Part shown: one piece after another, positions 2,632 to 53,724 of the stretch | How the letters are laid out: each line of letters begins with the position of its first letter | Numbering within the stretch: the first letter of the stretch is position 1 | DNA from: Escherichia coli | GTDB lineage: Bacteria > Pseudomonadota > Gammaproteobacteria > Enterobacterales > Enterobacteriaceae | Assembly: GCF_030384885.1 (NCBI RefSeq) | Contig: NZ_CP128613.1 | DNA: 64,000 nt | Reading direction: 5' to 3' (one strand) | Made by a program: the position numbers and the translations under genes | Notes under the pieces: model-generated | What the model saw: only the letters and a program-made list of their open reading frames with translations | Databases searched by the model: none | Told to the model about the DNA's origin: nothing

Positions 2632-8183
<5,552 letters not shown>

Positions 8184-23080: not shown

Positions 23081-23202
23081 TCCGCTTCCCCACGTCTTCT
23101 TCGTGATGACTATCTTAACCCGATTTGTTAGAAGCTCCACTAAAATGGCTAAAAACTCGCAATTTCATCGGGTTATCAAATGCTCTGTGATCATTATCGC
23201 AT

Positions 23203-23224
23203 ATCAACCAACTAGATGGTTGAT
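23203..23224. promoter_or_regulatory. Candidate TetR operator (inverted repeat) in divergent promoter region
   Basis: atcaacca-actaga-tggttgat, 8-bp perfect arms, between the TetR gene and the SDR gene; inference. Confidence 0.35.
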
Positions 23225-23291
23225 CTTTCTTGCCACACATTGCAAGCTAATCGTCACTTAAGGAAATAATATTCAAAAAGAGGGTTATTGT

Positions 23292-24083
23292 ATGAAGTCA
23301 ACACGTCCTGTTGCTGTCATCACTGGAGCCGCACGTGGTATTGGAAAGGGCTGTGCACTGGAACTTGCGCGTGGCGGATTTAATCTGCTGATTAATGATC
23401 GTCCGGATGCCGACAGCGTAGAAAAATTACATGCCACACAACAAGAATGTCTGGCGGAAGGCGTGGAAGTGATTTGCTTCCCTGCTGATGTTGGCGATCT
23501 CTCCCTTCATGAAGAGATGCTCGACGCGGCGCAAAACCAGTGGGGACGTCTGGACTGTCTACTCAACAACGCAGGCATTTCAGTGAAAAAACGCGGTGAC
23601 CTCCTCGACCTCGAACCAGACAGCTTCGACCAAAACATTGCCATTAACACCCGTGCGCCGTTCTTCCTTGCTCAGGCATTCAGTAAGCGATTACTGGCAC
23701 AGCCGAAACCGGAAGCAGAACTGCCGCACCGCTCGATTATTTTTGTCAGTTCCATAAACGCCATCATGCTGGCGATGAATCGCGGCGAATATACCATTGC
23801 CAAAACTGCCGTCTCCGCCGCAGCTCGTCTGTTTGCCGCTCGCCTTTGCAATGAACAAATTGGCGTTTATGAAGTGCGCCCTGGCCTAATCAAAACCGAT
23901 ATGACCATTCCGGCAACGGCTTATTACGACGAACTGATTGCTAAGGGGTTAGTGCCGTGGGGACGTTGGGGTTATCCGGCTGATATTGCCTCAACGGTCC
24001 GCGCGATGGCGGAAGGCAAACTGATTTACACCTGTGGTCAGGCGGTCGCCATCGACGGCGGCTTAAGTATGCCGCGCTTCTGA
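23292..24083 (+). CDS. Short-chain dehydrogenase/reductase (SDR)
   Basis: TGAARGIG cofactor motif, NNAG, and Ser...Y-x3-K catalytic motif (YTIAK) read directly. Confidence 0.85.
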   Translation: MKSTRPVAVITGAARGIGKGCALELARGGFNLLINDRPDADSVEKLHATQQECLAEGVEVICFPADVGDLSLHEEMLDAAQNQWGRLDCLLNNAGISVKKRGDLLDLEPDSFDQNIAINTRAPFFLAQAFSKRLLAQPKPEAELPHRSIIFVSSINAIMLAMNRGEYTIAKTAVSAAARLFAARLCNEQIGVYEVRPGLIKTDMTIPATAYYDELIAKGLVPWGRWGYPADIASTVRAMAEGKLIYTCGQAVAIDGGLSMPRF

Positions 24084-24092
24084 GGCTGAATC

Positions 24093-24935
24093 ATGAGAGA
24101 TCTGTTACAACGCCCGGATTTATTCAGTATCAATACTGCGACACTGGGCTATAAAACGCCGCTACCTGCCATTATTGATGCCTGCGCCGCACGCGGTATT
24201 GGCGCGATTGCCCCCTGGCGCAGGGAGTTACAGGGTGAAGATCTCCAGCAAATCGCCCGCCAGCTTGCTGCCAGTAACATGAGCGTTTCCGGTTTGTGTC
24301 GTAGCACCTATTACACCGCGCCGACGCTGACGGAACGCAAACTGGCGATTGATGATAACCGCCGGGCGCTGGACGACGCCGCTGTACTGAACGCCGCCTG
24401 TTATATGCAGGTGGTTGGCGGTCTGCCAATGGGAACAAAAGATCTGTACGAAGCGCGGGAACAAGTGAAACAAGGGATTCGCCAGTTGCTGCCACATTCG
24501 AAAGATGTCGGCGTGCCAATTGCGCTGGAGCCGCTGCACCCGATGACAGCTGCCGATCGCTCTTGCCTGTGCACGTTACGTCAGGCGCTGGACTGGTGTG
24601 ATGAACTCGATCCCGATGGGGAGTTTGGCCTCGGCGTGGCGGTGGATGTTTATCACGTCTGGTGGGACCCGGATCTCGCCAGTCAGATCCTGCGTGCCGG
24701 AAAACGCATCCTCGCGTTTCATGTTTCCGACTGGCTGGTGCCAACCACCGATTTAGTCAATGACCGGGGAATGCCGGGAGATGGCGTAATCAATATTCCG
24801 TCTATTCGTCGCCAGGTAGAAAATGCCGGATTTAACGGTGCTGTGGAACTGGAAATTTTCTCACCGTACTGGTGGCAGCAAGATATTAACAGCACGTTGG
24901 ATATTAGCGTCGATCGCATCGCGCATTATTGCTAA
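24093..24935 (+). CDS. Sugar-phosphate isomerase/epimerase-like (xylose-isomerase-type TIM barrel) protein
   Basis: 280-aa ORF; family assignment by overall resemblance only (…AFHVSDW…), no database check. Confidence 0.55.
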   Translation: MRDLLQRPDLFSINTATLGYKTPLPAIIDACAARGIGAIAPWRRELQGEDLQQIARQLAASNMSVSGLCRSTYYTAPTLTERKLAIDDNRRALDDAAVLNAACYMQVVGGLPMGTKDLYEAREQVKQGIRQLLPHSKDVGVPIALEPLHPMTAADRSCLCTLRQALDWCDELDPDGEFGLGVAVDVYHVWWDPDLASQILRAGKRILAFHVSDWLVPTTDLVNDRGMPGDGVINIPSIRRQVENAGFNGAVELEIFSPYWWQQDINSTLDISVDRIAHYC

Positions 24936-24938
24936 GGA

Positions 24939-25721
24939 ATGATCATGAGTGACCAACCCGTTCTGTTCAGCAGAGCGGCGGCTTCCTGCCGCCTGACATT
25001 GAACCGTGAAGATAAATGTCATGCTATTAATGAAGAAATGATCGAATCTCTCGACCATTATTTAAATGAAATTGAAAACGACACCACATTACGATTAGTC
25101 GAATTAACGGCAACCGGCGATAAATTCTTTTGTGCAGGCGGCGATATTAAATCGTGGTCAGCCTATTCGCCATTAGATATGGGCAGAAAATGGATTAAAC
25201 GCGGCAATGACGTTTTTAATCGCCTGCGCAATTTACCTCAATTAACGGTTGCGAATCTCAACGGTCATACCATCGGCGGTGGTATTGAACTTGCCTTGTG
25301 CTGCGATATTCGTATTGCTCGCCCCGGCGCGAAATTCTCTAATCCGGAAGTAATGCTCGGCATGGTGCCTGGCTGGATGGGCATTGAACGCGTGCTTAAT
25401 CAGGTCGGTCCGGTGGTCGGTCGCCAGATGCTGATGCTGGGTAAACGCCTGACGGCGCAGGAAGCTCAGGCAGCGAATTTAATTGATGAAGTGGTAGAAA
25501 AAGAACAGGTGGAAAGCTGGATGGCGAATCAGTTAGCGCAGCTGGAAAAATGCGGTCCGGTGGCGCTCGCACATATCAAGCAACTGATTCTGGCTCTAGA
25601 AAATAAACATGCTGATTACCCGCACCAGTTACTGGCTGGATTAATGTCCGCCACTCAGGATTGCCAGCAGGCGACGCGCGCATTTGCCGAAAAAAGTAGC
25701 GTGAGCTTCCAAAATCAATAA
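24939..25721 (+). CDS. Enoyl-CoA hydratase/isomerase (crotonase family)
   Basis: Crotonase signatures FFCAGGDIKSW and GHTIGGGIELALCCDIRIA. Confidence 0.85.
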   Translation: MIMSDQPVLFSRAAASCRLTLNREDKCHAINEEMIESLDHYLNEIENDTTLRLVELTATGDKFFCAGGDIKSWSAYSPLDMGRKWIKRGNDVFNRLRNLPQLTVANLNGHTIGGGIELALCCDIRIARPGAKFSNPEVMLGMVPGWMGIERVLNQVGPVVGRQMLMLGKRLTAQEAQAANLIDEVVEKEQVESWMANQLAQLEKCGPVALAHIKQLILALENKHADYPHQLLAGLMSATQDCQQATRAFAEKSSVSFQNQ

Positions 25722-25730
25722 GGAAATTGT

Positions 25731-27272
25731 ATGCGTAAGATAACAACCGCCGAGACACTGGCGGCGCAAATTCAGGACGGTGCAACCATTGCCATTAGCG
25801 GTAATGGCGGCGGCATGGTGGAAGCGGACCATATTCTGGCTGCTATTGAAGCGCGTTTCCTGCAAACCGGACACCCGCGCGATCTGACATTAATCCACTC
25901 GCTGGGCATTGGCGATCGCGACTGCAAAGGCACTAACCGCTTCGCTCATGCAGATATGCTCAAACGCATCATTGCCGGACATTTTACCTGGTCGCCCAAG
26001 ATGCAGGATCTGGTGAAAAACAATGCTATTGAAGCCTACTGCTTCCCTGGTGGCGTAATTCAGGCACTGCTGCGGGAGATCGGTGCCGGACGTCCAGGGC
26101 TTTTTACCCACGTTGGACTGGGATCGTTTGTTGATCCGCGCAACGGCGGCGGTAAGTCGAACGCCAGCACCACTGAGGATCTGGTAGAACTGATTGAAAT
26201 CGACGGTGAAACCAAACTTCGTTATCGCCCTTTCAAAGTGGATTACGCGATTTTGCGTGGCACTTATGCCGATCCTCGAGGCAACGTCAGCCTTGAAGAA
26301 GAGGCGATTGATATGGATAGCTATTCCATGGCGCTGGCAGCACACAACAGCGGTGGCAAAGTGTTCGTACAGGTGCGCGATGTGCTGGAAGCTGGTGCCA
26401 TTGAACCACGCCGGGTCAAATTACCGGGCATTCTGGTTGATGGCATCGTTGAACACCGCGAACAACCGCAAACATATCTTGGCGGTTACGACCTGACCAT
26501 CAGCGGTCAGCACCGCCGTTTAAGTTCTAACGACGCTATTGAACTGGTTACTCATCCGGTGCGCCGCCTGATTGCCCGTCGGGCAGCACGCGAACTGGTG
26601 GCTGGCGCTTCAACCAACTTTGGCTTTGGCATTCCCGGCGGCATTCCTGGGGTTGCACTGCGCGAAGGCGTGCCTTATCAAAGTTTATGGCTGAGCGTCG
26701 AGCAAGGCGTGCATAACGGTATGATGCTGGATGATGCTCTGTTCGGCTGCGCCCGTAACGCCGATGCCATTATTCCATCACTCGATCAATTCGAATTCTA
26801 CAGTGGCGGAGGGATCGATATCACCTTCCTCGGCATGGGAGAGATGGATCAGCATGGTAACGTCAACGTCTCCCATCTCAATGGCAATCTCATTGGCCCC
26901 GGCGGATTTCTCGAAATTGCGCAAAACGCCCGTAAAGTGGTGTTCTGTGGCACGTTCGACGCCAAAGGTAGCAAGATTGATGTAACACCAGATGGCTTGC
27001 ATATCGCCCAGTCAGGTCAAATCCCTAAACTGGTTACCCAAGTGGAAAAAATCACTTTTAGCGCCGCCTACGCACAGCAAAGCGGTCAGGAAGTGTTGTA
27101 TATCACTGAACGTGCAGTATTCCAATTAACAGCAGAAGGCGTTGAATTAATTGAAATCGCACCAGGTGTGGAGATTGAGCGCGACATTCTGCCATATATG
27201 GCTTTCCGTCCAATTATCAATCAGCCACGCCTGATGGAAAGTAGCCTGTTTACGCCGATGGAGGATGCATGA
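25731..27272 (+). CDS. Family-I CoA-transferase (YdiF/acetate CoA-transferase-like, fused A/B subunits)
   Basis: 513-aa ORF; long stretches resemble E. coli YdiF as I recall it (…VGLGSFVDPRNGGGK…); 3' end overlaps the next gene (ATGA). Confidence 0.8.
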   Translation: MRKITTAETLAAQIQDGATIAISGNGGGMVEADHILAAIEARFLQTGHPRDLTLIHSLGIGDRDCKGTNRFAHADMLKRIIAGHFTWSPKMQDLVKNNAIEAYCFPGGVIQALLREIGAGRPGLFTHVGLGSFVDPRNGGGKSNASTTEDLVELIEIDGETKLRYRPFKVDYAILRGTYADPRGNVSLEEEAIDMDSYSMALAAHNSGGKVFVQVRDVLEAGAIEPRRVKLPGILVDGIVEHREQPQTYLGGYDLTISGQHRRLSSNDAIELVTHPVRRLIARRAARELVAGASTNFGFGIPGGIPGVALREGVPYQSLWLSVEQGVHNGMMLDDALFGCARNADAIIPSLDQFEFYSGGGIDITFLGMGEMDQHGNVNVSHLNGNLIGPGGFLEIAQNARKVVFCGTFDAKGSKIDVTPDGLHIAQSGQIPKLVTQVEKITFSAAYAQQSGQEVLYITERAVFQLTAEGVELIEIAPGVEIERDILPYMAFRPIINQPRLMESSLFTPMEDA

Positions 27273-29350
27273 GTCAGCTTGATGACACCCTCCTTGATGC
27301 GCTGACGCATGTCACTTTCCCGAAGGGTTTTGCACAGGCAGAACCCGCATGGGTTGTCACGGTAGACGGTGTTGATTACCCACTCTGGCAAACAGATGCC
27401 CTGGTAGTCGGCAGTGGTGCAGCCGGGCTGCGTGCAGCTGTGGAACTTAAACGCCGCCAGCAAAATGTGTTGATCGCCACTGCCGGGTTATATATGGGGA
27501 CGTCGGCATGTTCTGGTTCCGATAAACAGACACTGTTTACCGCCGCTACCGCGGGCAATGGCGACAACTTCACCAAACTGGCAGAGGCACTGGCGAGCGG
27601 TGGAGCGATGGATCACGACACCGCTTATGTCGAAGCGGTAGGTTCTCTGCACACTCTTGGCGGGTTGCAATATCTTGGTCTGGAATTACCGGAAGATCGC
27701 TATGGCGCGATTCTTCGTTATCAAACCGACCATGACGAAGCCGGGCGTGCAACCTCGTGTGGGCCGCGTACCTCAAGGTTAATGGTGAAAGTGCTGTTGG
27801 AAGAAGTGCAGCGCCTCGCCATTCCAGTGTTGACCAGTGCAACAGTGATTAAACTGCTGCATCAGCGTGACGAAAACGGCGAAGACTGCGTGGCGGGGGC
27901 AATCCTCGCGACCGGTCATCGCGCCCATAACCCATGGGGGCTGGCAATTGTGACTGCGCCCAATGTGGTGCTGGCAACAGGAGGGCCTGGCGAGCTTTAT
28001 CGAGACAGTGTGTACCCACATAAATGCTTCGGCTCGCTGGGGCTGGCGCTGGAAGAAGGTCTGACGCTAACCAATCTGACCGAAAGCCAGTTTGGTATTG
28101 GCACGCCACGCAACACCTTTCCGTGGAATTTGTCCGGCACCTATGTACAGGTGATCCCATATATCTATTCCGTAGATGCTGAGGGCAACGAGTATAACTT
28201 CCTCACGGATTACTATCGAACTACCCAGGAACTGGCTTCAAACATCTTCCGTAAAGGCTATCAGTGGCCGTTTCACGCCACACGAGTGATGGATTTTGGC
28301 TCCAGCTTGTTAGATATGGCAGTAGCGCAAGAGCAGCAATCAGGGCGTCAGGTATTTATGGATTTCAATCGCAATCCTGAACCTGTGCCGGGTGACATGC
28401 CGTTCTCATTAGATCGACTGGACGACGACGTTCGCGCGTATCTGGAAAATAACGACGCTCTGGCACCATCGCCCATCGAACGACTGCAACGAATGAATCC
28501 GCTGTCTATCTCGCTGTATAAGATGCACGGTTACGATCTCACCACGCAGCCATTGCAGTTTGCCATGAATAATCAGCATATGAATGGCGGCATTGAAGTG
28601 GATATCTGGGGGCAAACCTCCCTGCCCGGCTGTTTCGCCGTGGGGGAAGTTGCTGGCACACACGGCGTTACCCGACCTGGCGGTGCGGCGCTGAATGCCG
28701 GACAGGTATTTGCCGTGCGACTGGCACGTTTTATTGGTTGCACACAAAAGCGGTCCGTTGAGGATGATATCGCGCAGCTGGTAGCCTCACCTCTGCATAC
28801 AATCAGAGAAGTTATCGCTCAGGCACTGGCAAACGAGAACGGAATGACGCTGGCAACGGTGAAAGAAAAAATCCAGGCGCGAATGTCTGATTACGCGGGA
28901 TTTATTTGCCATGCTGATAAAGTTCGTCACGCCGCCCGTGACGCCATGCTGTTAAATGAATTTGCGCAGCAACATGGTCTAACTATCAACCACGCCGGTG
29001 AAATTGCCGAGCTATTTATGTGGCGGCATATGGCATTAACATCCGCTGCGGTGTTAAGCCAGCTATCACATTATATTGATGCTGGCGGTGGTAGTCGTGG
29101 AGCACGGATGATTATTGATCCACAAGGAGAATATCTTCCACAAACTCGTCGCGGCGCAATCGAAGATTGGCGTTTTCGCTCTGAACAAGCTGAAGATAAA
29201 AATCACAGACTAACTCTCTCCTTTTCACAAGGTTTATTTATTAATGAAATTAAGTTCTTGAGAAACTTACCGCATATTAAAGGTATTTACTTTGAGAAGA
29301 ATTGGCCTGATTTTCTTAACGGAACAATTTATCAGACACGGCATGAATAA
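27269..29350 (+). CDS. FAD-dependent oxidoreductase (fumarate reductase/succinate dehydrogenase/L-aspartate oxidase-like flavoprotein)
   Basis: Dinucleotide-binding motif VVGSGAAGLRAA, HMNGG and GEVAGTHGVTRPGGAALN motifs of the FAD_binding_2 family; 693 aa with an AT-rich C-terminal tail. Confidence 0.75.
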   Translation: MSQLDDTLLDALTHVTFPKGFAQAEPAWVVTVDGVDYPLWQTDALVVGSGAAGLRAAVELKRRQQNVLIATAGLYMGTSACSGSDKQTLFTAATAGNGDNFTKLAEALASGGAMDHDTAYVEAVGSLHTLGGLQYLGLELPEDRYGAILRYQTDHDEAGRATSCGPRTSRLMVKVLLEEVQRLAIPVLTSATVIKLLHQRDENGEDCVAGAILATGHRAHNPWGLAIVTAPNVVLATGGPGELYRDSVYPHKCFGSLGLALEEGLTLTNLTESQFGIGTPRNTFPWNLSGTYVQVIPYIYSVDAEGNEYNFLTDYYRTTQELASNIFRKGYQWPFHATRVMDFGSSLLDMAVAQEQQSGRQVFMDFNRNPEPVPGDMPFSLDRLDDDVRAYLENNDALAPSPIERLQRMNPLSISLYKMHGYDLTTQPLQFAMNNQHMNGGIEVDIWGQTSLPGCFAVGEVAGTHGVTRPGGAALNAGQVFAVRLARFIGCTQKRSVEDDIAQLVASPLHTIREVIAQALANENGMTLATVKEKIQARMSDYAGFICHADKVRHAARDAMLLNEFAQQHGLTINHAGEIAELFMWRHMALTSAAVLSQLSHYIDAGGGSRGARMIIDPQGEYLPQTRRGAIEDWRFRSEQAEDKNHRLTLSFSQGLFINEIKFLRNLPHIKGIYFEKNWPDFLNGTIYQTRHE

Positions 29351-29370
29351 TATTGCAAAGGTTAATCACT

Positions 29371-29847
29371 ATGCGAAATATAATCAGATCTATTAATTCA
29401 TTGCTTTCCACGTTGAACATTACCATTTTGGCAATTATTGTGATGTGCGTTACATGGCAAGTAGTAGCACGATTTATCTTTAAAAGCCCCAGCATTTTTA
29501 CAGATGAACTTAGTCGTTTACTATTTATTTGTCTTGGACTTTTTGGTGGTGCTTATACTGCCGGACAAAACCGACATCTGGCCATTGATCTTCTGCCAAT
29601 GATGCTAAAAGGAAAATCCCGACGTTATTTATTCTTATGTATTCAGGCCATTGTTATTCTTTTTGCCTCTATCATTATGGTTTATGGTGGCGGGTTATTA
29701 ACACTGGACACATTTGATTCAGGGCAAACTTCTCCGGCTTTAGGCTGGCAGATGGGATATATTTACATGAGCATTCCAATAAGTGGCATCCTTATTATTA
29801 TATACACCATAGATACAGTTTTAACCGAACTTAAACAACCACTCTAA
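29371..29847 (+). CDS. TRAP transporter small permease (DctQ-like)
   Basis: About 158 aa with 4 predicted TM helices; ATG at 29371 with upstream aaagg preferred over the TTG at 29353; directly upstream of DctM. Confidence 0.75.
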   Translation: MRNIIRSINSLLSTLNITILAIIVMCVTWQVVARFIFKSPSIFTDELSRLLFICLGLFGGAYTAGQNRHLAIDLLPMMLKGKSRRYLFLCIQAIVILFASIIMVYGGGLLTLDTFDSGQTSPALGWQMGYIYMSIPISGILIIIYTIDTVLTELKQPL

Positions 29848-29869
29848 AATAAGTAGGGATGGAGAAAAC

Positions 29870-31171
29870 ATGGATTACTGGTTACCGATCATTGTGTTAT
29901 TTGGTTCTTTCTTTTTTATGTTGGCATTAGGTGTTCCTATTGTCTATGCTATTGGTTTATCAACACTGGCATCAATTACTACACAACTCGATTTCAACTC
30001 AGCATTGAGTGTGGTTTCACAAAAGTTAGCCTCCGGGTTAGATAGTTTTACGTTGTTGGCAATCCCATTTTTTATCTTGTCTGGCAACATTATGAATCAT
30101 GGAGGAATAGCGCGACGATTAATCAACTTTGCCCGTATTCTCGGCGGTCGTCTGCCAGGCTCACTTGCTCACTGTAATATTCTTGCCAATATGCTGTTCG
30201 GGGCAATTTCTGGTTCAGCTGTTGCTTCGGCGGCTGCGATGGGCGGCGTCATGCATCCACAGCAGGTTAAAGAGGGTTACGACCCGGCATTCAGTACCGC
30301 TGTTAACGTTGCCTCTGCACCGACAGGTTTACTTATTCCACCCAGTAATACGTTAATTGTCTTTTCACTGGTCAGTGGTGGTACTTCTATTGCCGCACTG
30401 TTCCTGGCAGGATATGTCCCGGGAATTTTATTGGGCCTGGCGCTGATGACTGTGGCTGGTATTATCGCGGTACGCCGGGGTTATCCAAAACCAGAACGTC
30501 CGACTTTGCGCCAGGCTGGAGTGGCAATATGGATGGCGATCCCCAGTATTTTCCTGATTGTATTAATTATGGGTGGTGTACTAAGCGGTATTTTTACCCC
30601 GACAGAAGCATCTGCAATTGCGGTAATTTATACCCTTTTCCTTGCACTGGTTCTTTATCGTGAAATATCAGTTAAAGATTTACCTAAGATATTTCTGGAG
30701 TCCGTCATTACCACTGCAATTGTCTTGTTGTTAATTGGTTCTTCAATGGGAATGTCATGGGCAATGTCAAACGCTGACGTTCCCTTCCTGATTCTCGATT
30801 TGCTTAACACTATTTCTGATAATCCAATAATAATCCTGCTTATTATCAATATTATTCTGTTGATTATCGGCACATTTATGGATATGACACCGGCAGTACT
30901 GATTTTTACGCCGATATTTTTACCCGTTGTCACCGAACTGGGCATGGACCCGATTCACTTTGGTATTGTCATGGTACTGAACATGTGTATCGGTATTTGT
31001 ACTCCGCCTGTAGGCAGTGTGTTATTTGTCGGTTGTAGTGTATCTAAATTACCGATTAATAAAATTATCAAACCTATGCTGCCCTTCTATGCCGTGATGG
31101 TATTGGTGCTGGCTATGGTGACCTATATTCCGCAAATCAGTATGGCATTGCCAAGAGCACTGGGCTACTGA
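29870..31171 (+). CDS. TRAP transporter large permease (DctM-like)
   Basis: 433-aa polytopic membrane protein; size and hydrophobicity pattern typical of DctM. Confidence 0.85.
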   Translation: MDYWLPIIVLFGSFFFMLALGVPIVYAIGLSTLASITTQLDFNSALSVVSQKLASGLDSFTLLAIPFFILSGNIMNHGGIARRLINFARILGGRLPGSLAHCNILANMLFGAISGSAVASAAAMGGVMHPQQVKEGYDPAFSTAVNVASAPTGLLIPPSNTLIVFSLVSGGTSIAALFLAGYVPGILLGLALMTVAGIIAVRRGYPKPERPTLRQAGVAIWMAIPSIFLIVLIMGGVLSGIFTPTEASAIAVIYTLFLALVLYREISVKDLPKIFLESVITTAIVLLLIGSSMGMSWAMSNADVPFLILDLLNTISDNPIIILLIINIILLIIGTFMDMTPAVLIFTPIFLPVVTELGMDPIHFGIVMVLNMCIGICTPPVGSVLFVGCSVSKLPINKIIKPMLPFYAVMVLVLAMVTYIPQISMALPRALGY

Positions 31172-31223
31172 TGCGCATTCACTGGCGGCTCCTGCCGCCA
31201 TATTTATTAGAAAAGGAACATCT

Positions 31224-32195
31224 ATGAAAATAAAAGTATCCGCTGGCATTATCGGTGCTGTTCTTATGTTATCTGCAGGCCAGTCCTGGGCAGTAACATT
31301 AAAACTTAGCCATAATCAGGATAAATCTCATCCTGTTCATAAAGCGATGGAGTTCTTTGCGAAAAAGAGCAAAGAGTACTCTAACGGTGATATTACTATT
31401 CGTATTTATCCAAATGGAACATTGGGTACTCAACGAGAAACAATGGAGCTGATTCGTTCTGGTGCTATTCCGCTGGTAAAAACCAATGCGGCGGAGATGG
31501 AAGCCTTCGAGAGTTCGTATAAAATATTTAGCCTGCCTTATTTGTTCCGCGATCGTGATCATTATTATCAGGTCATGCAAGGCGATATCGGAAGGAAAAT
31601 CCTCGACTCAACGAAAAACAAAGGTTATTTCGGTCTGACTTTCTATGATGGAGGCGCCCGCAGCTTCTACGGCAATAAACCGGTGCTGAAACCAGACGAT
31701 CTCAAAGGAATGAAAGTTCGTGTCCAGCCAAGCCCAGGGGCAGTTGAGATGATCAAAGTCATGGGAGGTAACCCAACACCGCTGGATTATGGAGAGTTGT
31801 ACACAGCATTGCAGCAAGGTGTGGTTGATATGGCGGAAAACAGTGTGATGGCGCTGACCACCATGCGCCACGGTGAAGTAGCAAAATCCTTCAGCCTTGA
31901 CGAACACACTATGGTTCCTGATGTGGTTCTAATGAGCAATGCTTCGTTTGATAAGCTTAGCCCGGAAAATCAGGCAGCTATATTAAAAGCAGCTAAAGAA
32001 TCAATGAGCTACATGAAAGACTTGTGGAGCGAGGAAGAGAAAAAAGAATTCGCTAAACTGGATCAAATGGGCGTGAAAGTCTACAAGGTTGATAAAGCAC
32101 CGTTTATCGAGAAAGTGCAGCCGATGTACGCAGCCTTTGCTAAGGAAAACCCTGCTCTCGCCCCAATGCTAACTGATATTCAGGCGACTAAGTAA
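31224..32195 (+). CDS. TRAP transporter substrate-binding protein (DctP-like), periplasmic
   Basis: 323 aa, signal peptide MKIKVSAGIIGAVLMLSAGQSWA; DctP-size soluble protein adjacent to DctQM. Confidence 0.8.
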   Translation: MKIKVSAGIIGAVLMLSAGQSWAVTLKLSHNQDKSHPVHKAMEFFAKKSKEYSNGDITIRIYPNGTLGTQRETMELIRSGAIPLVKTNAAEMEAFESSYKIFSLPYLFRDRDHYYQVMQGDIGRKILDSTKNKGYFGLTFYDGGARSFYGNKPVLKPDDLKGMKVRVQPSPGAVEMIKVMGGNPTPLDYGELYTALQQGVVDMAENSVMALTTMRHGEVAKSFSLDEHTMVPDVVLMSNASFDKLSPENQAAILKAAKESMSYMKDLWSEEEKKEFAKLDQMGVKVYKVDKAPFIEKVQPMYAAFAKENPALAPMLTDIQATK

Positions 32196-44705: not shown

Positions 44706-45869
44706 TTAGCCAGCAATATAATGCGGAACGAAACGTGAGGTGTCTTTGGTGATCAGCGTGTTATCTTCACGGATCCCCATTCCGCACGCTTCATCATCGA
44801 CAATCCAGCTACCAATGAGTGTGTAGCTATCGCCAAACCGTGGTAGAGGTTGAAATGCCTGGTAGATCATCGGTTCATCGGCGTAATCACCCTCAGCGTG
44901 GTCAACGACGTTATTCTGACCATCGAAAATGGTGACGTTACCGCCCTCGCGTGAGTAGATCGGTTTACGCACATAGCTTTCGCCAGCGGCAATCTGCGGT
45001 TTTTCGCCATCAAACCAGGATGCAAGTAGGTTAGGATGACCAGGAAAGAAGCGCCAAAGCAGCGGCATTAACCCTTTGTTGCTCAAGATACTTTTCCATA
45101 ACGGCTCCACCCATTGCTCGCGGCGCTTGCGCAGCAGCGGACCGTTATCGTCACGCATCATCCATTCCAGCGGATACAGCTTAAATGCACGCTGGATGAC
45201 ATTATCATCAAGATCGGTCAGTACACCGCCGACGCCCAAACCGAGATCTTCAATGTAGATAAACCGTGACTCCTGCCCAGCCTGCTGAGCGCAGTCCTGC
45301 AAGTACAGCACAGTACTCCTGTCTTCGTCGGTATCCTGACAACAGCAGAAATAAAACGGTTCCCGACTGTAAAGCTCGCTAAAACGCGAAATCAGGCGTT
45401 CCTGAATGGCATTGTACTGATCGGCATCACGCGGAATAATGCCGCTACGCCGCGCATCTTCCAGCCACAGCCACTGGAAATAAGCCGATTCATACAACGA
45501 GGTTGGCGTATCGGCGTTGTACTCCAGCAGCTTCACCGGCGCATTGCCACACCAGGCAAAATCCATCCGACCATACAGCGAAGGATCGCGTGCGCGCCAG
45601 CTTTCAGCGATCACATCCCAGTACAGCGGTGGGATCGCCAGTTGCGTCAGGATCTCTTCGTCTTGAACCGCACGATCCACCACCTCAAGGCACATCTGAT
45701 GCAGTTCCGCAGTTGGTTTTTCGATCTGCTCTTCTATCTGACGCAGAGTAAAGCGGTAAGCCCGACTCTCATCCCAATAGATTTCATTGTCGATGATATG
45801 AAAGTCGAAACCGTTGTCGGCGGCGATCTGGTCCAGATCCCGTCGTACAGGAACGTTGTGTCTCAGCAT
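44706..45869 (-). CDS. yjfC: Glutathionylspermidine synthase-like ATP-grasp protein YjfC
   Basis: 387-aa ORF; last gene of the yjf cluster. Confidence 0.9.
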   Translation of the reverse strand: MLRHNVPVRRDLDQIAADNGFDFHIIDNEIYWDESRAYRFTLRQIEEQIEKPTAELHQMCLEVVDRAVQDEEILTQLAIPPLYWDVIAESWRARDPSLYGRMDFAWCGNAPVKLLEYNADTPTSLYESAYFQWLWLEDARRSGIIPRDADQYNAIQERLISRFSELYSREPFYFCCCQDTDEDRSTVLYLQDCAQQAGQESRFIYIEDLGLGVGGVLTDLDDNVIQRAFKLYPLEWMMRDDNGPLLRKRREQWVEPLWKSILSNKGLMPLLWRFFPGHPNLLASWFDGEKPQIAAGESYVRKPIYSREGGNVTIFDGQNNVVDHAEGDYADEPMIYQAFQPLPRFGDSYTLIGSWIVDDEACGMGIREDNTLITKDTSRFVPHYIAG

Positions 45870-45871
45870 GA

Positions 45872-46510
45872 TTAGCCTCCCCAGTGCCCACGGGCGCTGG
45901 AAGAACGACCATAGCCGCCGCGAGAAACAGTTGACGCTTTTCTGGTGGTAAAGCCGCCCGAGGAGTAAGACTCTTTTTTGCCAGAACCGGAGCGCCAGGA
46001 GTAATCACCGGAAGTATTGCGCCAGACGGGGCGGGAAGCAAATGAGGATCCACCGCTGTTATAAACGAACGGCTCATCGCGATCTTTACGAATAACCCGG
46101 CTTAATAAAAATCCAGAAATGACCGGGATCCAACTCTGTTCAACATTGTCGTAGTAGCAATTTTCGTACTTAGACTGACAATTCTGCTGAGTCATATTCT
46201 TCGGAACATCGGCATAAAATGCCGCTTTGGCATTGTTCCAGCCATGAGCACAGATATCTGAATTATTACCGTCATCAATACAATCCTGCACTGTCGAGTA
46301 AAACGTTCCGTCACCGTCGTTATCGACATCACCACTATCGCCACAACCTTTCAATACAAAAAAAGCTGCACCGCCCATTAGCGCCAACGTTAAGTATTTT
46401 TGTGCGTAGCGATTGCGTCGCGGCTCAAAAGGATTATTAGGTCTTCCAATGCGACTGATCGCTCCGTGACCAATTTTACTGTTATTTCTTGATTTGCGTT
46501 TTCTGGCCAT
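45872..46510 (-). CDS. yjfM: DUF1190 protein YjfM
   Basis: 212-aa ORF with basic N-terminus and one TM segment; synteny. Confidence 0.85.
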   Translation of the reverse strand: MARKRKSRNNSKIGHGAISRIGRPNNPFEPRRNRYAQKYLTLALMGGAAFFVLKGCGDSGDVDNDGDGTFYSTVQDCIDDGNNSDICAHGWNNAKAAFYADVPKNMTQQNCQSKYENCYYDNVEQSWIPVISGFLLSRVIRKDRDEPFVYNSGGSSFASRPVWRNTSGDYSWRSGSGKKESYSSGGFTTRKASTVSRGGYGRSSSARGHWGG

Positions 46511-46519
46511 GATCGTCCA

Positions 46520-46918
46520 TTACCATGTCATACAAGCTGCGTTAAAAATACCGCCAGCCAGCGCGGCGGTTCCCATAAACATTCCTGCTGCGGTATTGTG
46601 ATTAATAATTTTTTCGCTTAATGCTGGCATATAAAGTCTGACGCCAGCAAAAACGAGTAACTGAATCACCAGTGCGATCCCGCCCCAGGCAAAATAATCC
46701 GGAATACTCACCGCATTGATTGCCGCACTAGATAATGGGATCACGTAACCCAACAATGTACCACTGAACGCCAGTGCCGCCGCGGTATTATTGTTTTTAA
46801 TTAACTGCCATTCGTTGTGTGGTGTAATTTTGGAGTAGATAAACAGAAAAATAATCACCATAGCCACGCCAATAAAAAAATAGGCGCTAAAGGCAAGAAG
46901 TGAATCCAGTATATGCAT
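46520..46918 (-). CDS. yjfL: DUF350 small membrane protein YjfL
   Basis: 132 aa, 4 predicted TM helices; synteny. Confidence 0.85.
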   Translation of the reverse strand: MHILDSLLAFSAYFFIGVAMVIIFLFIYSKITPHNEWQLIKNNNTAAALAFSGTLLGYVIPLSSAAINAVSIPDYFAWGGIALVIQLLVFAGVRLYMPALSEKIINHNTAAGMFMGTAALAGGIFNAACMTW

Positions 46919-46935: not shown

Positions 46936-47595
46936 TTAACCAATAATATGAAGTGATGTCAGTGGGATATCAACACCCAGTGCGCGCGAAAATAACCACT
47001 CCGGCTCGCCGAGATCGTTAAAAGATTCCTCACCATTTAACAGCAAATATTCACAGGTATCTTCGGTCACCTGCCGTTCATAGCCCATGGTAAAATTATG
47101 CACTTCCCATTTGGCGTGGTTTTGATTTTCAACTTTTTCCAGCATATAGACGGGTTCGATATTTCCCGGTTCTTCACTGTTAAAAAATCGCTGCCAGCGT
47201 TTTTCCTGCCAGTTTAATGTCATTGCCCCCATCGCTTTGGCGTTGATCGCTTCGCGCCAGTGGCTCTCTTTGCTGATACCGTAGCTCTCTTCATAGACAA
47301 AGAGCTTTATATCATCAATGTCATCAATATCTTCGCCGCCGGTGGTATTGATTTGCAGAAATTCATCGCCCGAAGTGTAGTAGCGGAAAATCTGACTACC
47401 GCCGCCCAGATCGATGTGGCTGACAGCGGCTACCGTAAATTCTTCACCCGGCAGCGCAATCAGCAATTCATCTTCCAGCAAACGAAACGCTAACGTGTCG
47501 AGCGTAAAGCCGCTATTGAGATGAAGTCCCAGTGGGCCACGTGCGATTGCAGGTTTATCATCCTTACCAAACAGACGCTTGAAAAAACTTGTCAT
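46936..47595 (-). CDS. yjfK: DUF2491 protein YjfK
   Basis: 219-aa ORF; its ATG overlaps the stop of the upstream RCK-domain ORF (ATGA). Confidence 0.88.
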   Translation of the reverse strand: MTSFFKRLFGKDDKPAIARGPLGLHLNSGFTLDTLAFRLLEDELLIALPGEEFTVAAVSHIDLGGGSQIFRYYTSGDEFLQINTTGGEDIDDIDDIKLFVYEESYGISKESHWREAINAKAMGAMTLNWQEKRWQRFFNSEEPGNIEPVYMLEKVENQNHAKWEVHNFTMGYERQVTEDTCEYLLLNGEESFNDLGEPEWLFSRALGVDIPLTSLHIIG

Positions 47596-48347
47596 ATGCT
47601 TCCCTCAATGTCCTGCCATGCCACTTCTTCAGCCAAAATACGGTTATTGCCAATAAGATGCAGCCACATACCGCCTTTAACTTCCGTTGCAATGACTGGA
47701 TTCAGTTCCATTCCCCTACCATTTTTACAACTGCTTATTCCCAGGACGGTGGCATCATGATGAAGTTTCATATAATGCATCAATGCGCCATAACGCATTG
47801 AGGTAACCCGTTCAGGAATCGGTAAAACAAACCCCGTATCCCCCAGCATTGGATTCATAATCGATGCCACTGATTGAGATGAACCGGGATCTTGTATTGA
47901 ACGGGAAAGTTGTTCTGCTGAAATATTTCGCACTATTTCAATACGTTGACAATGAACCTCTAATAAACGAGCGTAGCGTTCATCTTCCAGATAAGCGACG
48001 ATATGGCATCTTTCAGGAATAAAATCCGCCAGGGATAGTGCGGTCGTGAACGTCTGCTCATCTGTTTGCGAAAAGATGATGACACTTTGGCAATTTGCCA
48101 GTCCCATGCGGGTATGTTCATGCGGATCATTAAAATTACTAATACGAATGAAATCGACCCAATTATTTCCAGGCATCGGATGTTGAATATCATCCCGCTC
48201 ACACAAAAGTACCCGGCCAAATGCTCTTCGGGAATCAAACAACAATAATGAAATCATCTTTTCAGTCTGATGCCCGCGCCATCCAATGACCAGCATATGG
48301 TTGCGCAAATTGCTGTAGTCGCCCATTCCCGTCATTCCTTTCGCCAA
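47592..48347 (-). CDS. RCK/TrkA-like cytoplasmic domain protein (C-terminal half of a Kch/MthK-like K+ channel)
   Basis: Rossmann-like start …HMLVIGWRGHQTEKMISLL… and later segments resemble TrkA-N/TrkA-C by eye; ORF track starts at TTG 48347, but in-frame ATGs at 48335 and 48326 follow an AAAGGA Shine-Dalgarno-like sequence; same frame as the pore ORF. Confidence 0.6.
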   Translation of the reverse strand: MAKGMTGMGDYSNLRNHMLVIGWRGHQTEKMISLLLFDSRRAFGRVLLCERDDIQHPMPGNNWVDFIRISNFNDPHEHTRMGLANCQSVIIFSQTDEQTFTTALSLADFIPERCHIVAYLEDERYARLLEVHCQRIEIVRNISAEQLSRSIQDPGSSQSVASIMNPMLGDTGFVLPIPERVTSMRYGALMHYMKLHHDATVLGISSCKNGRGMELNPVIATEVKGGMWLHLIGNNRILAEEVAWQDIEGSI

Positions 48348-48353
48348 TATGTC

Positions 48354-48662
48354 TTACACTAATGCAATGACTTTTCCCATTAAAGCGCCAAATAAACCAA
48401 CACTCACAGGAATCTGCCAGAGCGCTGTGAACAGACGTCCCCCCACCGTTTGGGGTGTGATATCACCAAACCCCAGCGTTGATCCCACAACCGAGCAGTA
48501 ATAAATAAAATTACTAAGTTGTCCTACCAACGCCTCTTCATGCAACGCAGTTAACACCAGATAACAAAACAGATACTGTCCTGTAAATAATCCAGTCAAT
48601 GCCGGCCAGGTAAGCCTGGAAAGGTGACGTCGGCAGGTTTTAATGATCCATGAGAAGAACAT
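48354..48662 (-). CDS. Two-TM potassium-channel pore domain protein (selectivity filter TLGFGD)
   Basis: 102 aa: hydrophobic M1, pore helix + GSTLGFGDITP (T-x-G-[YF]-G-D K+ filter), hydrophobic M2; ATG overlaps yjfJ stop (TAATG); ends at a TAA in frame with the RCK ORF. Confidence 0.65.
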   Translation of the reverse strand: MFFSWIIKTCRRHLSRLTWPALTGLFTGQYLFCYLVLTALHEEALVGQLSNFIYYCSVVGSTLGFGDITPQTVGGRLFTALWQIPVSVGLFGALMGKVIALV

Positions 48663-49360
48663 TACTCGCCCTGTTGGCGTTGCAGTCTTGCTAATACATC
48701 CTGGGCGCTACTTTTGTTGCTACCGCCAATTCCGGCTTCCGCCAGTTTTTCATCAAGATCGCGACCATCTGCCACTTTTTCCAGCTGTACGGCAGCATCC
48801 AGGCGAGCTTGACGTTCGGCCTGACGCGTTTGCAGACGCTTTAAGGATTCTGCCGCTGTCGAAACGCTGGAAGATGCGCCAACAGTAGAGGTCGTTACGG
48901 CCTGTTGTGCACGCTGCATGGCTTCAGTAGCTTTAACGACTTCCATTTGTTGCTCAAACTGAGCGATACGCTGCGCTGTCGCTGTAACTGCTTTTTCCAC
49001 GCCATCACGAGAGACTTCCAGATTCGACAACACTTGCTCTTCAGCGGTAATAAGATTCTCAAGGCGCGCGATTTCTTCAGCAACTTCGTTAATCAACGAC
49101 GGATTAACGTTCTTGCTTAACGCTTCCAGCGCACGAGCTTCCAGACTGGCTTTGCGCTCACGTAAATCTTTCAGCTTATCGTGACTTAATTTCACCCGCG
49201 CCAGCAGATCAACGCGAGATTTTCCGGCTTTATCGAGTTCAGCTTTAGCGTCACGAATATGCTGTTCCAGCATGCGCACACCCTGGGTTTCTTCAATGGA
49301 TTCTTCCGCCTGAGAGATAAACGATTTCCCCAGCGTAAATAAACTTTTTAAAATTCCCAT
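48662..49360 (-). CDS. yjfJ: PspA/IM30-family protein YjfJ
   Basis: 232-aa coiled-coil-rich ORF; synteny after yjfI. Confidence 0.9.
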   Translation of the reverse strand: MGILKSLFTLGKSFISQAEESIEETQGVRMLEQHIRDAKAELDKAGKSRVDLLARVKLSHDKLKDLRERKASLEARALEALSKNVNPSLINEVAEEIARLENLITAEEQVLSNLEVSRDGVEKAVTATAQRIAQFEQQMEVVKATEAMQRAQQAVTTSTVGASSSVSTAAESLKRLQTRQAERQARLDAAVQLEKVADGRDLDEKLAEAGIGGSNKSSAQDVLARLQRQQGE

Positions 49361-49378: not shown

Positions 49379-49780
49379 TTAGTGTGAATATTCTTCTGTA
49401 ATTTCAGCAAGATCCAAAGCGTTATCTACCAGCGTGGTTATTTCCAGCAGGATATCTTCAAGAGAAGATTTAAGCGATAACGCCCCGAAAACAATGTAAT
49501 ACTCTTCCTGTTGCACGCTGGAGATCCCTACCGATGACAACGGCATCATCTTCTGATTTCTTAATAAGAAGGTATTAAATTCATCTGGATTGCAGATACT
49601 ACTTACCGGACAAATAAAGGTTTCGATAATCATTTGGCGGGAAGTAAAAAGAATATTGATTTGCAAATCGCCATAATCATTCATTTTAATAATTAATGCG
49701 TTTTCATTATTTGTTATATCAATATTTTGTTCAGGTATAGTTTGCAGCGCCGTCGCCAGCGCCAACGGATTCCATGTCAT
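49379..49780 (-). CDS. yjfI: DUF2170 protein YjfI
   Basis: 133-aa ORF; first gene of the yjf cluster. Confidence 0.88.
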   Translation of the reverse strand: MTWNPLALATALQTIPEQNIDITNNENALIIKMNDYGDLQINILFTSRQMIIETFICPVSSICNPDEFNTFLLRNQKMMPLSSVGISSVQQEEYYIVFGALSLKSSLEDILLEITTLVDNALDLAEITEEYSH

Positions 49781-49856: not shown

Positions 49857-49892
49857 GACAAAAAAAAACCATCCAAATATGGATGGTTTTTC
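49857..49892. terminator. Intrinsic terminator downstream of rlmB (rnr-rlmB operon)
   Basis: aaaaaaaa-accatcc-aaatat-ggatggt-ttttc: hairpin with A-run and T-run on either side. Confidence 0.8.
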
Positions 49893-49906: not shown

Positions 49907-50638
49907 TTAGCTACGCTGGCGTACCGCTTCAAATAAGCAAATGCCGGTCGCTACCGAAACGTTCAGGGAAGAAACGCTTCCTGCCATGGGGATGCTGATC
50001 AACTCATCGCAATGTTCACGAGTCAGGCGACGCATGCCTTCACCTTCTGCGCCCATAACCAGTGCCAGCCGTCCGGTCATTTTGCTCTGATAGAGCGTAT
50101 GATCCGCCTCTCCTGCCGTACCGACGATCCAAATATTCTCTTCCTGCAACATACGCATAGTGCGCGCCAGGTTAGTCACCCGAATCAGCGGAACGCTTTC
50201 TGCCGCGCCGCAGGCCACTTTTTTCGCCGTGGCGTTGAGCTGTGCGGAGCGATCTTTCGGCACAATCACCGCATGAACGCCTGCGGCGTCCGCGCTGCGC
50301 AGGCACGCGCCGAGGTTGTGCGGATCGGTCACACCGTCGAGGATCAGCAGGAACGGTTGTTCGAGCGAAGCGATCAGATCCGGCAGATCGTTTTCCTGAT
50401 ACTGACGTCCTGGCTTCACACGGGCGATAATGCCCTGATGCACGGCACCGTCGCTTTTCTCGTCGAGATATTGGCGGTTTGCCAGCTGGATAACCACGCC
50501 CTGGGACTCAAGGGCGTGAATCAGCGGCAACAGACGTTTATCTTCACGGCCTTTTAAAATAAAGACTTCCTGAAAACGTTCAGGGGCGCGCTCCAGCAGG
50601 GCCTGCACTGCGTGGATGCCGTAAATCATTTCGCTCAT
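49907..50638 (-). CDS. rlmB: 23S rRNA (guanosine2251-2'-O)-methyltransferase RlmB
   Basis: 243-aa SpoU-family ORF; follows rnr. Confidence 0.95.
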
Positions 50639-50818: not shown

Positions 50819-53260
50819 TCACTCTGCCACTTTTTTCTTCGCCGCACGCTTCGCTTTGGTCGCTGCGGCTATTTTCTGCGTTTTCGCCGATGGCTTTTTC
50901 GATTTTCTCGCGTCTTTCTTCGCCGCTTTCGGCTTCGTTTTTTTCTCGCCACGGAAGGCGCTGTCTGGCTCAAAGTTTACCTTTTTACCGACCTGGCGAC
51001 GCTTGCCGCCTTTTTTGCCTGCATCGCCTTTTTTCGCTTTCTCGCGCGCGGTTTTACCGACGTTGCGCGGTGCGCGTTCGCTGGAGATCAGGCTAAAGTC
51101 GATTTTGCGCTCGTCCATATTAACCGCTTCGACGCGAACTTCCACGCGATCGCCCAGGCGATAAGTCTGGCCGCTGGATTCACCCATCAGGCGTTGTCCC
51201 ACCTGGTCAAAGCGATAGTAGTCATTGTCCAGCGAAGAGACGTGGACCAGACCATCGATGAACAAGTCATCCAGGCGAACAAAGAAGCCAAAACCAGTGA
51301 CGCTGGAAATTACGCCTTTAAAGATGTTACCTACCTGGTCGAGCATGAAGTCACACTTCAGCCAGTCAGCCACATCACGCGTTGCTTCGTCGGCACGACG
51401 TTCCGCCATCGAACAGTGCTGACCCAGTTGCAGCATCTCTTCCATCGAATAATGGTAGCCGCCGGTTTCAGTGGTATTCCCCTGATGCCCCTGCTCTTTC
51501 GCCAGCAGATACTTAATGGCGCGGTGGAGCGTCAGATCAGGATAACGACGAATCGGCGAAGTAAAGTGCGCATAGGACTGCAATGCCAGACCGAAGTGAC
51601 CGCGGTTTTCCGGATCGTAAATCGCTTGTTTCATCGAGCGCAACAGCATGGTTTGCAGCATTTCTGCGTCAGGACGGTCAGCAACCGATTCCAGCAGTTC
51701 CGCGTAGTCACGCGGTTCCGGCTTGTTACCGCCAGGCAATTCCAGCCCCAGTTCCGCCAGCACTGAACGGAAAGAGGTTATCGCTTCGGTGCTCGGCTTG
51801 TCGTGAATACGGAACAGTGCCGGTTCTTTGGCCTTCTCAACGAAACGCGCCGCCGAGATATTCGCCAGAATCATGCACTCTTCAATTAACTTGTGTGCGT
51901 CGTTACGCTGGGTCTGTTCGATACGCTCAATACGGCGTTCAGCGTTGAAAATGAACTTCGCTTCTTCGCTCTCAAACGAGATCCCGCCGCGTTCTTCACG
52001 GGCTTTATCCAGCACTTTATAGAGGTTATGCAGCTCTTCGAGATGCTTAACCAGCGGGGAGTACTGCTCGCGCAGATCCTGATCGCCCTGCAGAATATGC
52101 CAGACTTTGGTGTAGGTCAGACGCGCGTGAGAGCTCATCACCGCTTCATAGAATTTGTAGCCAGTCAGGCGGCCTTTCGACGAAACCGTCATCTCGCACA
52201 CCATACACAGGCGGTCTACCTGCGGGTTGAGCGAACACAGGCCGTTAGAGAGCACTTCCGGCAGCATCGGGATAACCTGCGAAGGGAAGTACACCGACGT
52301 ACCACGGTTACGCGCTTCTCTATCCAGCGGTGTTGGCGGACGCACATAGTAACTGACGTCGGCAATTGCGACCCACAAACGCCAGCCGCCGCCGCGTTTT
52401 TTCTCGCAGTAAACTGCATCGTCAAAGTCACGGGCGTCTTCGCCATCAATGGTGACCAGCGGTAAATCGCGCAGATCGACACGGCCAGCTTTCGCCTCTT
52501 CCGGTACTTCTTCTTTCAGCCCGGCAACCTGTTGCTCAACAGCCTGCGGCCAGATGTACGGAATTTCATGGGTACGCAGGGCGATATCAACCGCCATGCC
52601 GGTGCCCATATTATCGCCCAGCACTTCGACGATTTTACCCACCGCTTTGGTACGGCGAGTCGGGCGTTGGGTCAGTTCAACCACCACCACAAAGCCCATC
52701 CGCGCGCCCATGATCTGATCGGGCGGGATTAAAATATCGAAGCTCAGACGGCTGTCGTCAGGAACCACAAAGCCGACACCCGCTTCAGTAAAGTAGCGAC
52801 CAACAATCTGGCTGGTTTTTGGCACCAGTACGCGGACAATACGCGCTTCACGGCGGCCTTTACGGTCAGCGCCCAGCGGCTGTGCCAGCACCTGATCGCC
52901 ATGAATGCAGGTTTTCATCTGCTCGCTGGAGAGATACAAATCATCTTTACGCCCTTCAACCCGCAGAAAGCCGTAGCCATCACGGTGGCCAATAACGGTA
53001 CCTTTCACCAGGTCGAGGCGTTCCGGCAGCGCATAGCACTGACGGCGAGTAAAGACCAGTTGACCATCGCGCTCCATCGCGCGCAGGCGGCGACGCAGGC
53101 CTTCAAGCTGCTCTTCGCCTTCAATGTGCAGTTCTACCGCCAACTCATCACGGCTGGCCGGTTTTTCACGTTTGGTTAAATGTTCGAGGATAAATTCCCG
53201 ACTAGGGATGGGATTCGCGTATTTTTCAGCTTCGCGTTCCTGGAAAGGATCTTGTGACAT
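50819..53260 (-). CDS. rnr: Ribonuclease R
   Basis: Start set at [13 protein letters not shown] (813 aa); RNB and S1 regions with lysine-rich C-terminal tail. Confidence 0.95.
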
Positions 53261-53298
53261 CTCGGTTCCTCCGTTGTCATCTCTGATGAAGATTTTCG

Positions 53299-53724
53299 TC
53301 ACTCCACCAGCAATAATTTATAAAGCGGTTGATTCTCTTCAACCAAATCGGCAAGCGTGTAGTTATCCAGTTCCGTAAGAAAACTTTGCACGGCCTTAGA
53401 AAGTGCCTGTTTCAACCGACAGGCAGGTGTAATGTGGCAAAACTCACTGCTGCAATTCACCAGCGATAAAGGTTCCAGCTCGCGCACCACATCACCAATA
53501 CGTATCGCACTCGCCGGTTTCCCCAGGCGAATGCCGCCATTTTTTCCACGAACAGCAGTCACGTAGCCGGCACGACTAAGTTGATTGATTATTTTGACCA
53601 TATGATTACGGGAGACGCCGTAGACGTCAGTCACTTCAGAAATACTGGTCATCCGCCCTTCTGGCAATGACGCCATGTAGATCAGCGCACGTAATCCGTA
53701 ATCAGTGAAACTCGTTAACTGCAC
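53299..53724 (-). CDS. nsrR: Nitric-oxide-sensing repressor NsrR (Rrf2 family)
   Basis: 141-aa ORF with Rrf2 HTH and three Cys ligands. Confidence 0.95.

Follow-up and report, generated by a model that had tools for sequence, protein, structure and literature searches.

We analysed a 64,000-nucleotide stretch of Escherichia coli DNA (contig NZ_CP128613.1 of assembly GCF_030384885.1), hereafter called the window, in which a first-pass annotation made from the letters alone had recognized a potassium-channel-like segment inside the yjfI-yjfC gene cluster. Our results strongly suggest that positions 47592..48662, on the minus strand like all genes of this cluster, hold a single gene that encodes an MthK-like, ligand-gated K+ channel, is an ancestral member of the operon in which it lies and is broken in this strain by a nonsense codon. 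The segment had been read as two translationally coupled open reading frames (ORFs), a reading that had to be given up. The 102-aa ORF containing GSTLGFGDITP (48354-48662) and the 251-aa ORF containing HMLVIGWRGHQ, which begins with TTG (47592-48347), lie in the same frame on the minus strand and are set apart by one TAA (48354-48356) and two codons. In E. coli 2013C-4282 (NZ_CP027579.1), the closest complete genome, the same 1,071 bases form one coding sequence (CDS) for a 356-aa protein, whose intact product is recorded in RefSeq as WP_000466338.1, "potassium channel family protein". The window locus, with its 356 codons and TGA, has a single mismatch to this CDS and is interrupted at codon 103, where position 48356 shows a C-to-T change on the gene strand that converts CAA (Gln103) to TAA. 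Because the frame is shared, only one TAA intervenes and the relative carries an intact CDS, we conclude that the two ORFs are one gene, and the annotation should show a single disrupted gene in place of a two-gene module.

The change at 48356 is the only difference between the window and 2013C-4282 within 13.5 kb. Over the full 64 kb the two sequences differ at just seven positions (6076, 6329, 11611, 16435, 31472, 40225 and 48356), which indicates that the source of the window is very near 2013C-4282, an stx1-positive member of cryptic clade I. Comparison with relatives showed that the premature stop is exceptional. Gln103 is near-invariant across 26 enterobacterial orthologues, the gene was uninterrupted in 10 of 10 orthologous loci examined, and the annotation "potassium channel family protein" is given to it in each of the 18 complete E. 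coli genomes in which it occurs. At least 1,000 contigs encode a protein identical to the intact form, and 7 encode exactly the 102-aa product. Logan contigs from three SRA runs matched the window with 100% identity across 2.8-6.0 kb, the TAA included, and since the same allele recurs in independent sequencing runs, we regard it as genuine. The stop is thus a rare, recent loss-of-function allele, and the channel is a fresh pseudogene in this strain.

The position of the stop suggests what its effect would be. Translation would halt just past the inner helix and yield at most a 102-aa, pore-only peptide that could not be gated by an RCK domain; the stop falls where the inner helix would meet the RCK linker, and it would uncouple the pore from its sensor. 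As translation would end at codon 103, that of the downstream gene yjfK would no longer be coupled to translation of the channel, and the premature stop may lower expression of yjfKLMC through this lost coupling or through polarity.

The assignment of the 102-aa ORF to K+ channel pores was borne out by the profile search. Pfam Ion_trans_2 (PF07885) matched the fragment far above chance (E = 5.7e-11) and also matched 26 of 26 orthologues, with one domain per subunit, as expected for a pore built of two transmembrane (TM) segments and one pore loop (2TM/one-P-loop). The predicted pore module spans codons 1-102 (48357..48662), in which Ion_trans_2, an AlphaFold2 (AF2) model and an alignment with MthK place an N-terminal helix, TM1, the pore helix, the filter and TM2. 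The selectivity filter, T62-L-G-F-G-D67 (48462..48479), is read directly from the sequence. It fits T-x-G-[YF]-G-D and is placed between two hydrophobic helices; in the AF2 model, helices 19-39 and 85-111 stand on either side of it. Residues G64, G66 and D67 are invariant across 57 family members, for which the consensus filter is TVGYGD. The channel family is large, with 1,154 cluster representatives found at E <= 1e-3 and, at the stricter threshold of E <= 1e-30, 108; its members are mostly about 350 aa long.

The remainder of the gene, codons 104-356 (47595..48353), is predicted to encode a linker and an RCK-type domain, with a Rossmann-like N-lobe starting at H122-MLVIGW and followed by a C-lobe; in this strain it is cut off from the pore. 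A profile built from the 26 orthologues found MthK as its best match among solved structures (E = 2.2e-7, residues 5-259 against 3-245), and the alignment ran continuously through the N-terminal helix, the pore and the RCK N-lobe. In the AF2 model, strands and helices alternate over residues 123-244. When this model was used as a Foldseek query, full-length MthK was retrieved with E = 2e-11 and probability 1.0, followed by Slo1/BK and isolated MthK RCK domains; the MthK RCK structures 2AEF, 4L76 and 3RBX scored E ~1e-9 with a target TM-score of 0.54-0.56. The RCK likeness claimed for the 251-aa part is therefore upheld by the MthK profile match and the fold search, the Pfam call being weak by itself. 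The GxGxxG nucleotide motif of the KTN subtype is absent from the RCK domain, which reads V-I-G127-W-R-G130-H-Q at this place, and the start of the domain resembles that of the non-nucleotide RCK of MthK (ICGWSES). Taken together, sequence and model predict a 2TM one-P-loop pore and one RCK domain on the same polypeptide.

MthK (PDB 1LNQ, 6OLY and 8DJB) shares with this protein a length of roughly 340-356 aa, and in both each subunit has an N-terminal helix, a 2TM/one-P-loop pore and, behind a short linker, a single RCK domain. A G-W motif follows beta-1 in both (VIGW here, ICGW in MthK), and an E-x-E-R-Y motif aligns. The two proteins nevertheless have an identity of just 17-19%, their filters differ (TLGFGD here versus TVGYGD), D184 of MthK aligns with Phe/Tyr, and the PspA-type operon context belongs to this channel and not to MthK. 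Apart from this protein, Kch, which is of the voltage-gated type and has six TM segments, is the sole RCK-bearing K+ channel of Escherichia; the match to it is weak and covers the pore and RCK region (residues 45-256, E = 1.2e-8). We rejected identity with Kch, as the curated model (NF007828/PRK10537) scored 34.4 bits, where 425 are required; Kch moreover lies at a different chromosomal locus, and two TM segments are present here. With the K2P channels the likeness extends to the P-loop and inner helix, which match the P-domains of TWIK-2, TREK-1, TASK and TOK1, but this protein has one P-domain per subunit and not two. The database name "two pore domain", a label that stems from the Pfam family name, is consequently wrong for a one-P-loop protein and needs correction on the many records that bear it.

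Since the break falls precisely between the pore and RCK modules, we considered whether the allele in the window could encode a functional split channel, in which a 102-aa pore subunit and a free RCK protein, started at Met113, Met110 or TTG105, assemble non-covalently. MthK itself makes a free RCK from an internal start, Met107, and pore-only MthK conducts. By analogy with Met107, a speculative internal start can be drawn at 48324..48341, where AAAGGA (codons 108-109) is followed after 9 nt by ATG (Met113). AAAGGA, 9 nt and ATG or TTG, with Shine-Dalgarno-like spacing, recur at codon 113 in 11 of 11 orthologue DNAs, the gene caller began the downstream ORF at Met113, and the allele persists across several sequencing runs. 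It could be speculated from this analogy that the family uses an MthK-like internal start near codon 113 to supply free RCK, as in the octameric gating ring of MthK, and that the Q103stop allele is a natural split channel. We nonetheless judge a functional split channel improbable. RCK gating requires a covalent linker that pulls on the inner helix, Gln103 is near-invariant, and the gene is uninterrupted in all the orthologous loci and complete genomes examined. Just 13 of the 57 family members have Met113, and the bases AAAGG at codons 108-109 are there because the conserved Lys108-Gly109 fix them. The allele is also rare, being on 7 contigs where the intact form is on 1,000 or more, and, at only 7 single-nucleotide differences from its intact relative, too young to show selection. 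Two RCK-only proteins (about 237 aa, with a start at residue 110-113) resembled natural split forms, but both lie at contig ends and were set aside as truncated gene calls.

We next turn from the broken allele to the history of the gene, for which the first-pass annotation had put forward two possibilities, loss of an ancestral operon member from K-12 and a strain-variable insertion. K-12 indeed lacks the channel. Among 5,426 complete genomes of E. coli, the gene is present in 18, always with at least 99.2% identity, and absent from the other 5,408, K-12 among them. In the non-carriers only the flanks match, and yjfJ, a 50-bp spacer and yjfK follow one another. The spacer of E. coli O104:H4 (20238-20287 of the examined segment) holds a hairpin with an 8-bp stem, GCCAGCCT...AGGCTGGC, after a T-run, and it also holds the Shine-Dalgarno site for yjfK. 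Carriage goes with the genomic background. At cysQ-cpdB, 33 kb away, the 18 carriers and two other genomes are 97.7-100% identical to the window, and 5,393 genomes are 90-95% identical, which shows that carriage tracks a divergent lineage and not individual strains; E04 and STN0717-20 are window-like at cysQ-cpdB and yet stand outside the 18 channel carriers. 2013C-4282 and EC42405 have been assigned to Escherichia cryptic clade I (Okuno et al. 2023, PMC10100065). We conclude that the window belongs to a divergent Escherichia lineage, clade I according to the literature for two of its strains, that kept the channel, and that strain-level variability does not describe its distribution.

Outside this lineage, the Salmonella enterica orthologue is 83% identical and has the same position and the same codon overlaps. 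A scan of species representatives, which used the enterobacterial alignment, with distant taxa sampled by single look-ups, returned nine further loci with the same gene order, between rlmB and aidB where these flanks are present. Identities were 97% in another Escherichia, 78-82% in three Citrobacter, 75% in "Serratia" microhaemolytica, 69% in Enterobacter, 62-64% in two Atlantibacter and 61% in Buttiauxella. Across these 10 loci the identity of the channel, from 97 to 61%, drops in step with that of YjfJ and YjfK. The same position and a divergence in step with the neighbours argue for an ancestral operon member, in agreement with the first of the two proposals, and the best reading of these sequence comparisons is that the channel belonged to the ancestral enterobacterial operon and that exactly this ORF was lost from E. 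coli sensu stricto. Apparently it was lost from several other lineages as well. Between Escherichia lineages the ratio of nonsynonymous to synonymous divergence (dN/dS) of the channel is 0.07, indicating that its sequence is under purifying selection. For most genes of the operon, synonymous divergence (dS) has reached saturation when measured against Salmonella and Citrobacter, and the synonymous comparison is accordingly usable within Escherichia and not across genera.

A recent horizontal insertion of a foreign channel at the yjfJ-yjfK junction would be the converse history, and we consider it quite improbable. It is favoured by the absence of the gene from 99.7% of complete E. coli genomes, by its patchiness among enterobacterial species representatives and by a channel dS of 0.157, below the 0.31-1.6 of its neighbours, which is compatible with exchange within the genus. 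The channel is also a little AT-richer than its two neighbours, as had been noticed by eye: its GC content is 44.5%, compared to 46.5% for yjfK and 49.8% for yjfJ. This difference is real but not distinctive. With yjfL at 43.4% and yjfI at 37.3%, the channel lies inside the 37-50% range of an operon that is AT-rich throughout relative to rlmB (56.7%) and aidB (54.6%), and GC content was therefore rejected as a sign of foreign origin. Against an insertion, at least 7 genera share the position of the channel and its codon overlaps, and the channel has diverged along with the flanking genes; the best match outside Escherichia is just 87% identical, and neither mobile-element genes nor repeats flank the locus. 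The collections searched contained no copy on enterobacterial plasmids or phages, and a mobile-element origin was rejected, as plasmid homologues (Vibrio, Rhizobium) reach at most 40% identity in unrelated contexts. The one notable "phage" match proved to be a mislabelled Salmonella chromosome contig. An apparent fusion of a channel remnant to YjfK was uninformative, every gene in its source assembly being fragmented.

The neighbours of the channel bear on what it might do. The overlaps described earlier were confirmed at both ends: in TAATG (48660-48664) the stop of yjfJ overlaps the channel ATG, and in ATGA (47592-47595) the channel stop overlaps the ATG of yjfK. Judged from these overlapping stop and start codons, the channel is translationally coupled to yjfJ and yjfK. 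The domains DUF2170, PspA_IM30, Ion_trans_2, DUF2491, DUF350, DUF1190 and GSP_synth are co-linear in window-identical contigs, at the Salmonella locus and in the RefSeq annotation of 2013C-4282. Such an arrangement has been described before. Ravi et al. 2024 (mSystems, PMC11237479) classified CesT/Tir-PspA operons with a polyamine-type ATP-grasp ligase as a "third group", already reported a K+ channel in this operon type, and proposed that such operons link PspA-based membrane dynamics with polyamines and solute changes. The locus studied here is nothing different in kind: the window is a cryptic clade I instance of the third group with a nonsense-mutated channel, and K-12 and other E. coli sensu stricto represent its channel-less variant. 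Both the protein (RefSeq) and its association with the operon (PMC11237479) are thus already on record, and the claim that this combination was uncharacterized holds for experiments but not for annotation or comparative genomics.

By analogy, the intact protein is inferred to conduct K+ selectively as a tetramer. The tetramer would carry a cytoplasmic RCK ring, an intracellular ligand bound to RCK would open the inner-helix gate and let K+ pass, and the K+ flux, acting on membrane potential or turgor, would adjust alongside PspA-like membrane repair and the polyamine-type enzymes. Co-expression with PspA/IM30 and polyamine-type enzymes suggests a role in membrane stress. A more specific proposal, to which we assign a small but appreciable chance, is that the channel forms the ion-flux arm of the YjfJ (PspA/ESCRT-III-like) module and that its RCK domain is gated by a product or substrate of YjfC or by contact with YjfJ or YjfK. 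If this were true, membrane repair would be coupled to controlled K+ flux. Nature provides an allelic series, with a clean loss in E. coli sensu stricto, an intact gene in clade I, Salmonella and Citrobacter, and Q103stop in this strain, that is suited to asking whether K+ flux belongs to PspA-like membrane-stress handling. The yjfIJKLMC operon of K-12 is a reduced form of the enterobacterial operon, and that the unit once included a K+ channel is relevant to studies of YjfJ such as the 2025 link to heat adaptation. As found, the importance of the window copy is limited, for it is a pseudogene of a conventional MthK-like family at a published place in an operon.

Several observations weigh against describing this gene as an ancestral, ligand-gated K+ channel now inactivated. 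Pfam TrkA_N matched the 251-aa part weakly and partially (E = 0.022), and among the orthologues it reached E <= 0.001 in 3 of 26 and E <= 0.1 in 10 of 26. The AF2 model is of only moderate confidence, with a mean pLDDT of 74.6 and a pTM of 0.50. The Ca2+ site of MthK is incomplete: of its three residues, E210 and E212 pair with E226 and E228 here but D184 falls on Phe198, and positions 226 and 228 vary in the wider family. As to ancestry, the 50-bp spacer of E. coli contains no remnant of the channel (alignment score 9 against a shuffled mean of 10.3), and the scan did not return the Salmonella enterica representative, E. albertii or E. fergusonii, which makes the distribution of the gene patchy. 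K+ selectivity, the tetramer, RCK gating and the link to YjfJ are all inferences, and our literature search found no experimental work on the channel or any member of its subfamily. Finally, the pore and RCK fragments left by the stop could keep some activity.

The first-pass annotation had also floated a membrane-depolarizing effector. Read as anti-phage defence or abortive infection, such a channel would be triggered by the PspA-like sensor. PspA was historically named a "phage shock" protein, ion channels act as effectors in some defence systems, and the channel is variably present in Escherichia. We nevertheless hold this reading to be very improbable and found no defence or abortive-infection evidence for it. 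PADLOC-DB 2.0 returned no match for the channel, YjfI, YjfK, YjfL, YjfM or YjfC, and for YjfJ only coiled-coil noise (E ~2e-3), which leaves all seven proteins of the operon without a meaningful match. In many genera the operon is found at one constant site of the core genome, flanked by rlmB and aidB, and not in a defence island, and purifying selection and vertical co-divergence suit housekeeping or stress physiology. That the TAA is a sequencing or assembly error absent from the organism has next to no chance of being correct: only one base separates the locus from the nearest genome, but contigs from the three SRA runs carry the TAA with full identity and the exact 102-aa product is found on seven contigs.

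The surrounding genes run along the minus strand in the order rnr (50819-53302), rlmB (49907-50638), yjfI, yjfJ, the channel ORFs, yjfK, yjfL, yjfM, yjfC and aidB. The first gene of the operon, yjfI (49379..49780), encodes a DUF2170, CesT/Tir-like protein and is followed by yjfJ (48662..49360), of the PspA/IM30 family, whose TAA stop shares one base with the channel ATG. Beyond the channel lie yjfK (46936..47595; DUF2491), yjfL (46520..46918), which encodes a DUF350 membrane protein, yjfM (45872..46510; DUF1190) and, as the last gene of the operon, yjfC (44706..45869), for an ATP-grasp enzyme resembling glutathionylspermidine synthetase. A terminator-like hairpin with a 13-bp stem and a long T-run (49863..49892, minus strand) delimits the yjfI operon on its upstream side. 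Because it stands just past rlmB, the operon probably has its own promoter within the following ~80 bp. In K-12, yjfIJKL form one co-regulated unit, whose expression rose strongly in lines evolved under heat because of a promoter mutation located 80 bp upstream of yjfI (PMC12492005). In two papers on Salmonella Enteritidis, the only mention is of a yjfK-yjfL fusion.

YjfI (49382-49780) matched the NCBIfam model of the Pseudomonas biofilm regulator BacA (PA3732 family) with E = 9.5e-27, below the family cut-off, a match that connects the yjf genes with the "bac" biofilm cluster of Pseudomonas, in which a PspA-like protein is encoded as well. Between Escherichia lineages (49379-49780 here against 1958-2350 of the examined segment), YjfI is 80% identical at the amino acid level with a dS of 1.6, and the neighbouring rlmB product is 100% identical with a dS of 0.21. 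The dS of yjfJ is likewise elevated (0.74), and that of the channel is the lowest of the operon. These contrasts suggest allelic replacement or recombination inside the operon. In Enterobacter hormaechei CP058160.1 (2521-5614 of the examined segment), two insertion sequence (IS) elements of the DDE_Tnp_1 type break yjfJ and the channel, so that this operon was inactivated there in a separate event.

Among the distant homologues, those on Vibrio megaplasmids of ~300 kb, including the NDM plasmid pNDM-116-14, are 39-40% identical to the channel, lie at 5971-7035 and 6100-7023 of the examined segments and adjoin lepB, with no PspA gene nearby. A channel homologue is also carried by 51 Rhizobium plasmids. 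Distant chromosomal homologues often stand alone, and one marine contig pairs a homologue with DUF2170 and DUF2491.

The window and an ordinary E. coli genome differ at another locus as well. Between ytfB and rplI (22433-32195) it contains a TetR regulator and an 8-gene cluster encoding a 3-ketoacyl-ACP reductase, a sugar-phosphate isomerase, an enoyl-CoA hydratase, a CoA-transferase, an FAD oxidoreductase and a three-gene TRAP transporter. This cluster is missing from E. coli O104:H4, which has only TetR fragments around an IS609 copy, together with yjfZ.

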